From a virus: a stretch of 63,018 nt of DNA. The notes below the pieces were generated by a model. It did not search any database and was not told where the DNA came from. It saw nothing but the letters and a program-made list of their open reading frames with translations. Below are positions 11,443 to 58,026 of this stretch, one piece after another. The stretch's first letter is position 1, and every line of letters starts with the position of its first letter. The position numbers and the translations under genes are program-made. The DNA is taken from the UHGV virus genome UHGV-0170870; one strand, written 5' to 3'.

Positions 11443-13758
11443 ATGGTAAATCAGGACGATGCGCGCCGCGTACAGAACAAGCACAACGCGATGTTGCTCG
11501 CGCGCAACGGCATCCCCGTGTTCCCGTCCAGTGGAAAGGTGCCGCTGGTCAAGCTCTACAATCGCAGAGACACCGAGATAAAACCCGAGGATCGCGAAGC
11601 CGCTATCGAGCAGGCACGCGAGGAAGGGAACAAGCAGCTCACAGTCTTCGTCGGCGCGACGACCGATCCCGACATCGTCAAGCGCATGTGGCGTCACCCG
11701 AACCAAGATGCGGTTCCGTCCGTAGCGTGCGGGCCTGCGCGCCTGGTCGTGATCGACGCCGACACCAAGTTCAACGGTCCCGAGCTGATCGGCAAGCTCT
11801 TCGACGAGCACGGCGGCGTGCCCGAAGGCACGCAGATCATCACGACACAATCGGGTGGCCGCCACTACATCTTCAGCGATCCCGACAACGCCTTCACGAA
11901 TAGCGCTGGCGCGCTCAAGAAGCAGTACGGCTGCGACGTGCGAGGGCGCGGCGGTCAGTTCGTTGCGCCTGGCTCGCTCCGTGAGGACGGCAAGCGCTAC
12001 GGAGACCAGGCCGCGCTCAAGGCGTTCATCGAAGCCTACACCAACGGCACGATCCCGCCGCTCCCTGATTACATCGTCGAGCTGATCGGCACGTCCTCGG
12101 CGGAAGTGGGGGAAGATATCCCCATCTCCAAAGAGCGCGAGATCATCAAGCAGATCGACGAGGCGGACATTCCCGAATGGGAAGAGCTGTGCGCGCCGCT
12201 CGGCGAGTATGACTTCGACAAGCTGCAAGCCGAGAACAGCGAGTTCAAGTCGCTCTACAACGAGCCCGGCGACGACTGCTCCGACAACCGCTTCAAGGCT
12301 GCGCGCCACGTCATGCGCGAGTGGCCGCAGATGCCGCCCGAACACCTGGCGTCGTTCTTCCTGGCCTTCGAGGGTGCTGGCGAGTTCGTCGACAGCAAGC
12401 CGCGCTCCGGCGAATACGACAACCGGCAGACCGCTCGCGAGTGGCTGAAGAACCAGGGTCTCAGCAAGGCGTCGACCGGCGAGGCGTTCGGCGCTGTCGT
12501 CGACGATGACGAAGACTCCGAGTACGAGCGCGAGGTCGCCGCAGAGAAGGAAGCCGAGAAGGCCGCCAAGCCGAAGGGCACGCTGCGCCGCATGTCTGGT
12601 GTCGCGATCTACGCCGATCCGAACTGGATGGTCGAGAATATCTGCACGCGCGGTATGGTCGGCATGCTTCATGCTCCGTCGAATGCCGGTAAGACGTTCA
12701 GTGCATTCCACATGGGCGGCAAGCTCTCCGAAGGGTGGGAGTGGTTCGGCCGCAACGTCGAACAGTGCGGCGTTCTCTACTGCGTCGGCGAAGGCCACGG
12801 CGGCATCAATCGCCGCGCGCTCGCCTGGTCGAACCGCTACAAGCCCAAGCACGATGCGCTCATCTTCCGCGACGGCGTTCCGAACTTCGCGCTCGATCCG
12901 AAGGGCGCGCGTAGGGCGTTGCGCAAGGCCGTCAAGGAAGCGAACGCGATGCTTGAAGGCGAGGGGCTTTCAGTCGGTCTGTTGTTCCTCGACACGTTCG
13001 CGAAGGCCGTAGCGGGTGCCGAGGAAAGCTCGGCGCGCGAGATGCAGCCGATCCTCGATATGCTCCGCGAGCTGGCCGTCGAGTTAGACATCTGCATCAT
13101 CATCGTTCACCACTCCGGCAAGGACACGTCGCTCGGTGCGCGCGGCAGCTCGGCGATCTTCGCCGATGTCGACTTCAACCTTGAGATCGTCAACGCCGAC
13201 CAGGCCAAGAAGAAGCACGGGCTCTCGCTCAAGCATAAGAGCCACTCGGCGATCATCATGCCGAAGATGCGCGACTCGGGGAAGTCAGGCCGCTTCGAGT
13301 TCAAGCTTGAAGAGGTCGAGCTAGGCAAGAACAAGTGGGGCAACCCCGTTACATCAATGGTCGTGGTCGAGGTCGAGGACAAGCCGTCCGAGGGCTCCGC
13401 GTTCGGCGTCGTCGACGAAGAGGCCCCCACAACCAAGGACGAGTTGACGCCCGAAGTGAATCGCTCCGACGACAACAGCCGCTTGAAGCTCTGCGCGAAG
13501 ATCATCAAGGCCGTGCAGAAGATCGGCAAGCTCGTCGGCAAAGAGGTCCACGCCGACGCCGAGATGGTGCGCCTCGAAGTGAAGGCGATGCAGGACATCT
13601 ACGACGAGGCCGGGCCGGACAACTACGCCAGGGCGTTCAAGCGCCGTGTGTTCGGCGGCGACGAGGTCAAGCGCTTCGTGCCCGAGGCGAACGGATCGCT
13701 GCATTACGTGACGCAACGAGGCAAGCCGAGCATGCTTGTGTTCAAACCCCGATCATAG
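11443..13758 (+). CDS. bifunctional primase-polymerase / P-loop replicative helicase (primase-helicase)
   Basis: N-terminal prim-pol features (GIPVFPSSGKVP, VVIDADTK); Walker A HAPSNAGKTFSA and VHHSGK in C-terminal half; start set at ATG 11443 with GGAAGG RBS because the ORF-track start 11299 lies inside the upstream promoter-like element. Confidence 0.8.
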   Translation: MVNQDDARRVQNKHNAMLLARNGIPVFPSSGKVPLVKLYNRRDTEIKPEDREAAIEQAREEGNKQLTVFVGATTDPDIVKRMWRHPNQDAVPSVACGPARLVVIDADTKFNGPELIGKLFDEHGGVPEGTQIITTQSGGRHYIFSDPDNAFTNSAGALKKQYGCDVRGRGGQFVAPGSLREDGKRYGDQAALKAFIEAYTNGTIPPLPDYIVELIGTSSAEVGEDIPISKEREIIKQIDEADIPEWEELCAPLGEYDFDKLQAENSEFKSLYNEPGDDCSDNRFKAARHVMREWPQMPPEHLASFFLAFEGAGEFVDSKPRSGEYDNRQTAREWLKNQGLSKASTGEAFGAVVDDDEDSEYEREVAAEKEAEKAAKPKGTLRRMSGVAIYADPNWMVENICTRGMVGMLHAPSNAGKTFSAFHMGGKLSEGWEWFGRNVEQCGVLYCVGEGHGGINRRALAWSNRYKPKHDALIFRDGVPNFALDPKGARRALRKAVKEANAMLEGEGLSVGLLFLDTFAKAVAGAEESSAREMQPILDMLRELAVELDICIIIVHHSGKDTSLGARGSSAIFADVDFNLEIVNADQAKKKHGLSLKHKSHSAIIMPKMRDSGKSGRFEFKLEEVELGKNKWGNPVTSMVVVEVEDKPSEGSAFGVVDEEAPTTKDELTPEVNRSDDNSRLKLCAKIIKAVQKIGKLVGKEVHADAEMVRLEVKAMQDIYDEAGPDNYARAFKRRVFGGDEVKRFVPEANGSLHYVTQRGKPSMLVFKPRS

Positions 13759-53887: not shown

Positions 53888-55018
53888 CTAGAACCTGTCA
53901 GCGGGTCTTTGAACAGTCTTTGACGTAAACGAGCCCGGTTCGTTCCCCTCGACCTTACAAGCTCCTGACGCAAACATGCCAGCGAGCTTCGCCATCGCGC
54001 TCTCCGCCAGGCGCAGATCGCGCCCGAGGTAGTGCCGGTCCAGAATGTGCTCCACGTCCTTCAGGCTGTGGCCGGTGAACGTGGCGATCTCCGGCACTGT
54101 GCATTCGGCGAGCGCCAGGCGCACCACCGCTGAGCCGCGCAGATCGTGGAACGTCAAGTCCTCGTTGATCCCCACGTCGATCAGGGCGTCGCCCCAGGAC
54201 GACCGGAAGCCGTCCTCTGTCCACGGCTTGGCCCGAGAGTTGGTCAGCACCAGCGGCCCGACCCGCTTCATGGAGTCGAGGTAGGTCTTGAGCACGGGGC
54301 TGACAGGGATGGTGACCCGCTTGGCCTTGGCGACCTTGCCGTGGCGTATGGTCTTGCGCTGCGTGAGCCTGATGTAGGTTCCGTCGTAATCCGACCAGCG
54401 CAGGCGGATCAGATCGCCCTCCCGCTGGCCGGTCCAGATCGCGAGCATGAGCGCGTCGACGATCCGCTCCGGGGCTTTCTCGATCATGAGCCCGAGCTGC
54501 GCTTCGGACCATATCTTGTCGAGGCGATCCCCGCCCTCGTAGAGACGGCCGCCGCGCTCGCAGGGATTGACGCTGATGCGTCCGCGATCCTTGGCGACGG
54601 AGAAGATGCGGGCGAGCACGGTCCACGCATAGTCGGCCTTGCGAGGCTTGTCTGCGAACCCATCGCGCCAGGTCTTGAAGACGCCACGCGCGCCCTTCTG
54701 TTCGACGGCCGCAATCGGCATCGTGCCGAACTCTTGCTCGATGAGGGCGATGTAACGGAGGTAGTCTTTCTTCGTCTTGTCGCTGAGCACTCGGTACTCG
54801 GACGACGCTTTGAACTCGACGATGAGCGCGAAGACCGTGGCGTCTGACACGGTCTTCTTGCTCGCTATGTGCTCGTTGAACTCGGTGATGAATGCGGGCG
54901 TGCCGTACTTCGCCTTGATGCGGGGGCCGCCCTTCCACGCGTAGTAGTACCGACGCTTCTTGCCGCCGCCGATCTTGGCGTCGGACCAGAACAGGCCGAA
55001 CAGGTCTACGCGCATCAC
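53888..55018 (-). CDS. int: tyrosine-type site-specific integrase
   Basis: 376 aa; C-terminal catalytic region with HDLRGS and HYLGRD (Tyr); adjacent to tRNA-like att sequence. Confidence 0.85.
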   Translation of the reverse strand: MMRVDLFGLFWSDAKIGGGKKRRYYYAWKGGPRIKAKYGTPAFITEFNEHIASKKTVSDATVFALIVEFKASSEYRVLSDKTKKDYLRYIALIEQEFGTMPIAAVEQKGARGVFKTWRDGFADKPRKADYAWTVLARIFSVAKDRGRISVNPCERGGRLYEGGDRLDKIWSEAQLGLMIEKAPERIVDALMLAIWTGQREGDLIRLRWSDYDGTYIRLTQRKTIRHGKVAKAKRVTIPVSPVLKTYLDSMKRVGPLVLTNSRAKPWTEDGFRSSWGDALIDVGINEDLTFHDLRGSAVVRLALAECTVPEIATFTGHSLKDVEHILDRHYLGRDLRLAESAMAKLAGMFASGACKVEGNEPGSFTSKTVQRPADRF

Positions 55019-55853: not shown

Positions 55854-55993
55854 TGACCAAACCCAATAAGGTTAGCGACGACGATGAGAATCTTGACCGC
55901 GATCATCAGGCCGCATCCGAGGGAGACACCGCCTACGATGCCAATGGCGGTCCCCTTCAGGATCGCCACGGCGCATTGCTTGAAGCTCCGCAT
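55850..55993 (-). CDS. small hydrophobic membrane protein (47 aa)
   Basis: ATG 55993 overlaps upstream stop (TGATG); MRSFKQCAVAILKGTAIGIVGGVSLGCGLMIAVKILIVVANLIGFGQ. Confidence 0.3.
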   Translation of the reverse strand: MRSFKQCAVAILKGTAIGIVGGVSLGCGLMIAVKILIVVANLIGFGQ

Positions 55994-57837
55994 CAGTCTG
56001 TCTCCACGCGTTTGAAGTAGACGCGGTAGACCGAGAAGCGGGTCTTGACGATCACGTCGCCGTGTTGGTCGAAGAACATCTCTTCGATGCGGCTTGTGGT
56101 GATCGGCTCGCCGTCGATGAAGCGACCCTTGGTGTCGCCGTAGACAGGGCCTTTGACGCAAGGCGCATGCGTCGGATCGCTGGCCGTATCGTTGTAGAAG
56201 ACCGCTTCCTTGATAGTGCCGTGGACCTGCATAGGTTCCTTTCCGAGAGGCTTGCGATTCTCCGCCCACACGAACTTGTTCTCCGTGGGGCTGAGCGACT
56301 TCGAGTTCTGATCGCCAAGCGTCTCGGCGACGAGAGCCCACATGGGGTGATGGTGGGAGCCCGCGCCGAGCCTCCACTGCGTCGTGTTCTGATTGACGAA
56401 CTCGCGGAAGAGGCGCAGCGCGGTTGTCGGGTCGATGGCGGCCATCAGAACTTCTTCCCGTTGGCAGCCAGGCGCGCTTCCGGCTTGTGGTCCGCGCGAT
56501 GCTTGTTGTACTCGCGCTTCCGGCTTGTGGTCCGCGCGATGCTTGTTGTACTCGCGCTTCTCGGCGACAGCGGTCCACAGGTCGTAGCCGTGCTGCTTCG
56601 CGTACCCTTCGATCAACGCGATGGCGTGGATCAGCCGCAACGCGCGATCGCGATTCGACATTGCCCGGTTGACGTTCGTCACCATGCGGCTGATGCGGAG
56701 CAACGCCTGACCCTTGTTGGCCGGGAGATCGTCGACAGGGGTCTTGAAGTTGAACGACGACGAGAGCGGAATGCTACCGAGGATGTCCCCGATGCGAATG
56801 ACAGCGTCGGCCAACTCGACTTCCGCCATCTTCCGCTTCGGCAGATGGTCGTCCATCAAGTTCTTGCGCTCACCTTCCATACACTCCGCCAGCTCGGACA
56901 CGACGAGCATGAGCATCTCGCCCATGTTGCGGTTGAGCTTTTCGCCGGTCGCCGGATCGTGCCACCAGTGCGCGTTGGCCGCATGGACTTCCTGCGCCCA
57001 TGCGTTCAGGCTTGCAGGACGGCCCTGCTCGAAGCGACGAAAGTCCCATCCCCCGCTCTCGCCCTTGTTGTAGTCGTCGTTTTCGAGAACAGCGTATCCG
57101 TTGTGGAAGCCGACGATGTTGTACGTCTTGCCGACCGTTAGACGACGGTTACCCTCGATGCAGCGAGCGGGGCCAAGCTTCAGCGCGCCCTTCTTCCGAT
57201 TCCACACGTCAAGCGCCTTCTCGGCCTGTGCGCGCGTCACGAACATCGACGCCGAGGGCGGAACGTCGCCAGCCGTGAACAGGTCATCGTCCTCGTTGAC
57301 ACGCGGGTCGATGTACGGCGTGCCGATCCACGGACGCTGCTCCTGCATGCGGGGCAGGGCGCGCGACGACGGACGCATCTGTTCGCCGTACAGTTCGCGC
57401 GGCGCGAGCGGCTTGGCGTCTGCGGGCAGAACGTCCTCGTTGAAGGACGCCTCGCGGTCGCGCAGCGCGTTCGCGACCTCGGACGGTTCGAGGCGTTGCG
57501 GCAACTCGGCCAGTTTCTTGCGGGCGAACTCCGCGACGGCCGGGAGGTCTTCCGGCTTCACGTCGGTCAGCCGGTTGGCCTTTCCGTGGACCCTGACGGC
57601 CGTGACAACGTGGAGCCTGTCGGGGTACGCGTCGCGCAGCTTCACCAAGAGCGCCTTGACCTCAGAGTGCGTCAAGGTGGGAGGCGCAGGCGGAGCGCCG
57701 GTCTTCGCAAAGGCGATCAGATCGGCACGGAGCTGCGCCGCCATCGCAGTTTCGATAGCCTCGCGCGTCGCACGATAGCTGCCGCCGAAGTCCTTCGGGA
57801 TGAGAAACAGAACAGTGGGGGTCATGGTAGGTGACAA
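55993..57837 (-). CDS. fusion ORF: unknown N-terminal domain + MazG-like NTP pyrophosphohydrolase-like domain, fused in frame to a downstream 150-aa ORF by a 40-bp tandem duplication
   Basis: MazG-like segment EMLMLVVSELAECMEGER...AEVELADAVIRIGDILG; removing one 40-bp repeat unit restores a stop (…HKPEARLAANGKKF*) overlapping ATG of the MAAIDPTT ORF. Confidence 0.5.
   Translation of the reverse strand: MSPTMTPTVLFLIPKDFGGSYRATREAIETAMAAQLRADLIAFAKTGAPPAPPTLTHSEVKALLVKLRDAYPDRLHVVTAVRVHGKANRLTDVKPEDLPAVAEFARKKLAELPQRLEPSEVANALRDREASFNEDVLPADAKPLAPRELYGEQMRPSSRALPRMQEQRPWIGTPYIDPRVNEDDDLFTAGDVPPSASMFVTRAQAEKALDVWNRKKGALKLGPARCIEGNRRLTVGKTYNIVGFHNGYAVLENDDYNKGESGGWDFRRFEQGRPASLNAWAQEVHAANAHWWHDPATGEKLNRNMGEMLMLVVSELAECMEGERKNLMDDHLPKRKMAEVELADAVIRIGDILGSIPLSSSFNFKTPVDDLPANKGQALLRISRMVTNVNRAMSNRDRALRLIHAIALIEGYAKQHGYDLWTAVAEKREYNKHRADHKPEARVQQASRGPQAGSAPGCQREEVLMAAIDPTTALRLFREFVNQNTTQWRLGAGSHHHPMWALVAETLGDQNSKSLSPTENKFVWAENRKPLGKEPMQVHGTIKEAVFYNDTASDPTHAPCVKGPVYGDTKGRFIDGEPITTSRIEEMFFDQHGDVIVKTRFSVYRVYFKRVETD
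56481..56560. repeat. Perfect 40-bp tandem duplication (2 units) inside coding sequence
   Basis: Units 56481-56520 and 56521-56560 are identical: CGGCTTGTGGTCCGCGCGATGCTTGTTGTACTCGCGCTTC; 40 is not a multiple of 3. Confidence 0.9.
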
Positions 57838-57840
57838 TCC

Positions 57841-58026
57841 TTACAGGCCAGACGCAGAAAGATAGGACCGGAGGGCGATGGTCCCGTGTGATGACGTTCC
57901 GAGGTAGGCGTCGAAGAACCAACCGCGCTCGCGCGCTATCGACACCCACGCCTCTCGAAAGATGTAGTTGAAGCGCATGCGAGCGATTTGCATGGCCCGC
58001 CCTTTGGCCTTGTCTTCAGGTGACAT
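57841..58026 (-). CDS. hypothetical small protein
   Basis: 61-aa ORF with GGAG RBS. Confidence 0.3.
   Translation of the reverse strand: MSPEDKAKGRAMQIARMRFNYIFREAWVSIARERGWFFDAYLGTSSHGTIALRSYLSASGL

Follow-up and report, generated by a model that had tools for sequence, protein, structure and literature searches.

We describe a perfect 40-bp tandem duplication in UHGV-0170870, a viral sequence of 63,018 nucleotides (hereafter the window, meaning this whole stretch). The element is a temperate phage of Bradyrhizobium, and the repeat lies in the last codons of its gene for a predicted nucleotide pyrophosphatase, where it joins that gene in frame to a separate downstream gene of 150 codons. 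Our data indicate that the repeat is probably a genuine, heritable and recent microhomology-mediated tandem duplication (MTD), tolerated or mildly selected, which has spread clonally and does not act as a regulated switch. The form with a single unit still exists in public data, and a second, different lesion at the same place produces a similar fusion.

When the plus strand is compared with itself, positions i and i+40 match for every i from 56473 to 56520. The tract at 56473-56560 consists of two perfect 40-bp units, 100% identical and without a spacer, together with 8 bp of a third copy. The initial annotation had placed two identical head-to-tail units here, and both the self-comparison and Tandem Repeats Finder (TRF) bear this out. 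The stretches 56481-56520 and 56521-56560 have the same sequence, and the choice of register within the tract is arbitrary. We place the first unit in plus-strand order at 56473-56512 (CGCGCTTCCGGCTTGTGGTCCGCGCGATGCTTGTTGTACT on the plus strand) and the second, identified by TRF and by self-comparison, at 56513-56552; the first is identical to the second and is missing from the one-unit loci L006-L009. The 8-bp microhomology, which reads CGCGCTTC on the plus strand and GAAGCGCG on the coding strand, lies at 56553-56560, with further copies at 56473-56480 and 56513-56520. These features, and the two genes that are fused, are on the minus strand. The TRF score of the 40-bp repeat (177) is the highest in the window, in which no other perfect tandem duplication with a unit of at least 15 bp was found. 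A chance origin of the repeat was ruled out, as about 1e-23 such sites are expected.

The fused open reading frame (ORF) extends from an ATG at 57825 to 55993 and encodes 610 aa, comprising a variable N-terminal region, the pyrophosphatase domain, a frameshift linker and the product of the former 150-aa gene. An alternative TTG start at 57837 gives the 614-aa ORF (55993-57837, minus strand) that the initial annotation had attributed to a frame shift caused by the duplication, and the shift itself was reproduced; gene callers choose the ATG at 57825. Deletion of one unit in silico gives an upstream ORF that terminates in ...HKPEARLAANGKKF-stop, and its TGA shares an A with the ATG of the 150-aa ORF (TGATG). 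This arrangement had also been predicted at the outset, with an end in ...GKKF-stop, and it is found both in silico and in the public loci L006-L009. In the window, the former stop/start overlap at 56443-56447 is read through in frame; the same overlap is kept in a related phage, L018. The ancestral tail LAANGKKF-stop is replaced by a linker of 22 codons outside the ancestral frame (VQQASRGPQAGSAPGCQREEVL, 56446-56511).

The frame of the downstream gene is open for 96 codons 5' of its ATG, and therefore a net +1 shift anywhere close to the upstream gene's end fuses the two genes. A shift in the opposite phase lengthens the upstream product by 207 aa. The fused alleles keep both the ATG of the downstream gene and its purine-rich leader (ACGGGAAGAAGTTCTG) unaltered, and given this the free 150-aa protein may still be translated from that start. 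In the one-unit allele, the final 100 codons contain neither a slippery heptamer (X_XXY_YYZ) in the zero frame nor a homopolymer of at least 5 bases. Programmed -1 ribosomal frameshifting that was later fixed by mutation was ruled out for this reason.

Three alleles of the junction were recognized in public data, in each case from assembled contigs. The one-unit allele (L006-L009) has separate genes for proteins of 446 aa (...GKKF-stop) and 150 aa with the TGATG overlap. The two-unit allele is present in the window, in L001-L005 and in L105, and the exact 610-aa product was recovered on 13 contigs from at least six independent datasets (ERZ894294, ERZ894292, JGI 3300045988, JGI 3300051099, ERZ28640766 and ERZ28598933) made with different assemblers, including SPAdes and that of JGI. 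In the third allele, a deletion of 2 bp changes GAAGCGCGCCTGG to GAAGCGCCTGG, so that the product reads ...HKPEA-PGCQREEVL-MAAID... and is a fusion of 596 aa with a linker of 9 residues, compared with 22 in the duplication allele. This deletion converts GCGCGC to GCGC in L011-L014, L101-L104 and L106, of which L102 is a prophage integrated in a 7.54-Mb chromosome. The GCGCGC tract is intact in the window (56472-56477) and overlaps the gene-distal 8-mer; the duplication and the deletion thus affect the same ~10 bp. Counted by exact protein sequence, the 596-aa form occurs in 285 contigs, the 446-aa form in 16 and the 610-aa form in 10-13, numbers that mainly mirror the spread of contaminant clones and not fitness. 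The public copies included no allele of three or more units. Scans of the viral_contigs and metagenome_contigs collections for exact allele patterns gave no matches, though the phage occurs in other collections.

The 40 bp are the sole difference between the one-unit locus L007 and the window, and no single-nucleotide polymorphism (SNP) separates them in 20.5 kb. The initial annotation had called the repeat recent on the ground of its perfection, and this absence of SNPs between the two alleles leads to the same conclusion. All copies of the phage are 0-7 SNPs apart per 20 kb, with an identity above 99.96%. Five SNPs around the junction, three to the left and two to the right, are informative about its history. 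The six copies with the 2-bp deletion that were compared carry C-C-G to the left of the junction and, wherever sites to its right are covered, G. One-unit copies carry either T-A-G|T-T or T-C-A|G-G. Duplication copies carry T-A-G|T-T, except L003, which carries T-A-G|G-G, and the left flank is common to all of them. This distribution fits a single origin of each derived allele, provided that L003 is the product of one crossover, or an assembly chimera, beyond the phage attachment site (attP). A four-gamete pattern had pointed to recurrent duplication; this idea was weakened when further loci were added, since one crossover across the att side accounts for L003.

Additional features of the region were seen in individual datasets. 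JGI dataset 3300045988 contains two phage contigs of 63,073 bp, one with the 40-bp duplication (L002) and one with the 2-bp deletion (L104), and represents either a mixed population or pooled data. The 32.6-kb contig L010 (Logan, SRR5275476) breaks off within the 40-bp unit itself, at a point 57 nt upstream of the ATG of the 150-aa ORF. Such an end is expected from branching of a k=31 assembly graph if the sample contains the duplication or mixed alleles. L013, from the assembly of Phycicoccus jejuensis NRRL B-24460, has a deletion of 266 bp (window 57734-57999), which was seen in this one assembly only. It is out of frame and removes the pyrophosphatase gene's first ~31 codons along with most of the 61-aa ORF that lies upstream.

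Comparison with relatives indicates that the unfused form is ancestral, and that the 40-bp duplication and the 2-bp deletion both destroy a conserved C-terminal tail, as judged from the aligned protein ends. All 51 viral relatives from IMG/VR terminate in R.DH....R....GK[KRSA][FWY]-stop at the same position, and an overlap of TGATG or TAATG onto the next gene is common among them. The initial annotation had left the fusion to be compared with related elements; none of the 51 has an extended or fused pyrophosphatase C-terminus. Similarly, none of the 23 larger proteins inspected that contain the N-terminal module of the 150-aa protein (the N-module, described below) has pyrophosphatase motifs. 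A natural, established fusion architecture was rejected on these two counts. The 62-kb phage L018 shares synteny with the window and has ...ARLAAGGKKF-stop, with a TGATG overlap onto a homologue of the N-module; the homologues P0003-P0005 have a C-terminal end like that of L018. Stand-alone homologues of 116-119 aa in Mesorhizobium and in a Hyphomicrobiales metagenome-assembled genome (L015 and L016) end in ...ARLAANGKRW-stop. In L018 the second 8-mer is GAAGCTCG and the GCGCGC tract is missing, and the slippage-prone sequence is therefore specific to the lineage of the window's phage.

On its coding strand, the one-unit allele has the sequence ...GCCGA-GAAGCGCG-AGTAC...(32 bp)...GCCG-GAAGCGCG-CCTGG, with the exact 8-mers 40 bp apart. 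A slip between these two 8-mers in the last codons of the pyrophosphatase gene would duplicate the 40 bp. As 40 is 39 + 1, ribosomes would then leave the ancestral frame after ...HKPEAR, skip the TGA, read 22 new codons and enter the downstream 150-aa gene in frame. The predicted outcome is one protein of 610 aa in place of proteins of 446 aa and 150 aa, with loss of the tail ...LAANGKKF-COOH. The separate loss of 2 bp within GCGCGC produces the same net change of frame and the 596-aa fusion. A net +1 shift in the last codons would be a soft landing, in that it spares both the catalytic domain and the downstream protein; the other phase would append ~207 junk residues across the downstream gene. 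The two surviving lesions may share the same phase because +1 is the sole frameshift with such a soft landing. After it arose, the duplication would have spread clonally with a phage lineage that contaminates laboratories.

Several observations weigh against this account of a chance slip followed by clonal spread. The site is not mutationally special, as the one-unit form of the window contains 162 pairs of direct repeats of at least 8 bp spaced 8-60 bp apart, and in 54 of them the spacing is not divisible by 3. The use of this pair is therefore not accounted for by mutability alone. Two independent lesions in one gene, or three with the 266-bp deletion of L013, among genomes 0-7 SNPs apart per 20 kb look more like selection than neutrality. 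The duplication copy L003 has flanking SNPs of another haplotype, which calls for a crossover, a chimeric assembly or a second origin. Contigs, moreover, do not make heterogeneity within a sample visible.

The strongest competitor, which we consider possible but doubtful, is convergent remodelling under positive selection, in which loss of the tail or tethering to the downstream protein was advantageous and each lesion was driven to high frequency. It would explain why two independent events with equal net frame and outcome fell within the same 10-bp spot when this is just one of 162 comparable slippage sites, and why L013 has a third lesion in the same gene of otherwise nearly identical genomes. 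The 2-bp-deletion fusion is the majority allele (285 contigs), and the adjacency of the pyrophosphatase gene to N- or C-module proteins in three diverged phages suggests a functional link between the products. The shared frame is, however, accounted for without selection by the soft-landing argument, and both lesions lie within the same GAAGCGCGC motif, so that a local hotspot of mutation would be a plausible cause. What the contig counts measure is the spread of contaminant clones, not fitness, and the lack of fusions in the 51 relatives and of pyrophosphatase motifs in the 23 N-module proteins shows that this is not a recurrent successful architecture. A narrower proposal, which we think unlikely, is that the invariant tail of the pyrophosphatase was selected for removal or masking in this lineage, the two or three lesions being convergent escape or adaptation, for example evasion of a host or satellite factor that recognizes the enzyme; the fusion would also tether the enzyme to an HHHPMW-containing partner with which it would normally cooperate. 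Staphylococcal phage dUTPases are sensed by the repressors of staphylococcal pathogenicity islands, which offers a loose analogy for such evasion.

The initial annotation had raised two other explanations, a reversible switch and an assembly artefact. In the first, the 40-bp unit would be gained and lost by slipped-strand mispairing as a contingency switch, and populations would toggle between two proteins and one fused protein without the tail. One part of that proposal stood, in that one- and two-unit alleles coexist in public data, and they do so on an identical haplotype with no SNP in 20 kb. Tandem duplications in Schizosaccharomyces pombe revert at ~1e-4, ~100 times the forward rate of ~8e-7 (PMC8639346). 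The end of L010 exactly inside the unit is what a branch in the assembly graph would give, and the duplication in L003 lies on a partly different haplotype. The remaining part, recurrent switching, is doubtful, as the distribution of alleles fits a single origin: the left-flank haplotype is common to all duplication copies, and L003 can be explained by one crossover, making homoplasy unnecessary. In addition, at least six datasets have the duplication as their consensus, three or more units are not seen, and the forward step is a rare slip between 8-mers. Relatives do not have the perfect pair of 8-mers, and the site is therefore not a conserved device. We regard a switch as improbable. An artefact made by the assembler at a short repeat can be set aside almost entirely. 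Mis-joined k-mer paths can yield perfect short tandem duplications, but the identical 88-bp tract and the 610-aa product were recovered in at least six datasets with different pipelines. Other assemblies of the same phage cleanly show the one-unit or the 2-bp-deletion form, and the tract is shorter than a typical read. On the recurrence of the same allele in at least six datasets from different assemblers, the artefact was rejected.

The duplication resembles known MTDs generated by replication slippage of the Streisinger type. Its copies, tens of bp long, are perfect and lie head to tail; in the unduplicated allele the unit is bounded by an exact 8-bp microhomology with a spacing equal to the unit length; the frame is shifted; and an otherwise identical single-copy allele coexists (L007). 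In the ssp1 gene of S. pombe, microhomologies of 5-8 bp give rise to duplications of 55-92 bp (Dan et al. 2021; PMC8639346). Unlike those cases, the frameshift in the phage runs in frame into the next gene and does not cause truncation, the host of the duplication is a phage and not a yeast, and no reversion was seen among the contigs.

Simple-sequence contingency loci of Neisseria and Haemophilus undergo phase variation through changes in repeat copy number. The phage junction is similar in that a change of copy number alters the reading frame among close relatives and a second lesion occurs in a (GC)3 run at the same place. It differs in that there are only 1-2 units, and (GC)3 against (GC)2, far under the tract lengths of high switching; no homoplasy is demonstrated and the relatives do not have the repeat. 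As in stop-codon-loss ('Rosetta-stone') fusions, adjacent genes that overlap at TGATG are joined by a small indel, but the phage fusion is polymorphic within one near-clonal lineage and missing from all relatives examined. The case belongs to a well-known class of mutation and does not constitute a new category; what adds interest is that the ancestral form survives and that a second allele has converged on the fusion.

The upstream enzyme has a long variable N-terminal extension followed by an all-alpha nucleoside triphosphate (NTP) pyrophosphohydrolase domain of the dimeric-dUTPase/MazG-like kind (56503-57012). Its residues 276-445 match PHROG 5658, annotated as 'pyrophosphatase', with an E value of 1.6e-53, and PHROG families 9236 and 3301 are further 'pyrophosphatase' matches. 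It shows the helical fold of the superfamily and is closest to dimeric dUTPases, with a weaker resemblance to MazG. The original label 'MazG-like' is right at the level of the superfamily, in agreement with the PHROG annotation, but 'dimeric-dUTPase-like' is closer in fold. Residues E40, E43, E64, E66 and D69 are invariant in an alignment of 14 pyrophosphatase sequences, and these acidic residues, on two helices, form a putative metal-binding site. Compared with the all-alpha NTP pyrophosphohydrolase superfamily as a whole, which includes dimeric dUTPases, MazG and HisE, the phage family (PHROG 5658) has its own invariant tail, ...GK[KR][FWY]-COOH. Searches of Pfam, NCBIfam, PADLOC and PDB sequences gave no match to the fused protein.

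The former 150-aa gene encodes two separable modules. The N-module (56239-56433) has three helices and the motif LRLFREFV..TQW.GAG.HHHPMW, and the C-module (56011-56232) is a small beta-barrel with GDTKGRF...TRFSVYRV. A word-indexed search for homologues of the 150-aa ORF gave one protein, and an exhaustive HMMER search was used instead. The N-module is found alone or as the C-terminus of many unrelated proteins, and in the relative P0049 (as in locus L021) the order of the two modules is reversed. Proteins with an N- or C-module are encoded after the pyrophosphatase gene in three diverged phages, namely that of the window, L018 and L021, an adjacency that hints at a functional link. All matches of the 150-aa ORF to PDB sequences were non-significant (E value 0.37 or worse).

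The window is a complete, circularly permuted genome of ~63 kb that encodes an SNF2 helicase, a PD-(D/E)XK nuclease, an Enc34-type single-stranded DNA-binding protein, DNA polymerase A, a sigma factor, an integrase, a lysozyme and a CHAP domain protein. The phage integrates beside a tRNA-Lys gene. In the integrated copies L008 and L102, the integrase adjoins the tRNA-Lys(CTT) gene and the dctPQM genes of the host. In the window, the integrase gene is located at 53888-55018 on the minus strand, with the attP side at ~53800; the corresponding site in the integrated copy L008 is 12598-12673. ARAGORN found no complete tRNA in the window, which is therefore the excised, circular form. A search of INPHARED gave no close relative: the structural region had no matches in the near mode, and the junction region matched over 5-9% of the query in the distant mode. 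Nothing specific to this phage was found in the literature.

The phage is also a widespread sequencing contaminant. Source labels of its proteins name Bradyrhizobium viridifuturi, and proteins labelled 'partial' come from assemblies of E. coli, Klebsiella, Acinetobacter, Stenotrophomonas, S. pneumoniae and Aspergillus fumigatus. Whole phage contigs are present in NRRL assemblies of Streptomyces and Phycicoccus, and the phage occurs as well in assemblies labelled Aerococcus and in re-assemblies of human gut metagenomes. A neighbouring protein of 61 aa has index entries in 920 blocks of the collection. Such a spread across unrelated assemblies is typical of a sequencing contaminant, a role documented for Bradyrhizobium (PMC4023998).

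Other repeats were observed elsewhere in the window. The length of an intergenic poly-C run at ~2933-2936 differs by 1-4 bases among near-identical copies. Overlapping imperfect repeats of 12, 15, 24 and 27 bp (GGCGGCTTCCTC...) at 3214-3320 probably encode a low-complexity repeat in a protein. Between 15340 and 15830, TRF detected clusters of degenerate 8-bp repeats of the GACCTTCC and CGGTCAGG types, with ~8-10 copies each, plus a 24-bp period; these could be iteron-like or regulatory.

The junction is a clean natural case of an MTD whose ancestral form survives alongside it, and the phage that carries it occurs in hundreds of public datasets. Where a stop and a start overlap, a single small slip has merged two genes into one, and an unrelated second slip at the same spot has done likewise. 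The 'hypothetical proteins' of 596 aa and 610 aa in databases, some of which carry E. coli, Aspergillus or Streptomyces labels, arose by frameshift fusion in a contaminant Bradyrhizobium phage and do not represent a natural domain architecture, and the three alleles are usable as markers to trace contaminant lineages. The comparison also flags the invariant ...GKK[FWY]-COOH tail as probably functionally important in this family of phage pyrophosphatases. If the convergence of the lesions does reflect selection, it would point to an unknown interaction of phage dUTPase-like enzymes.

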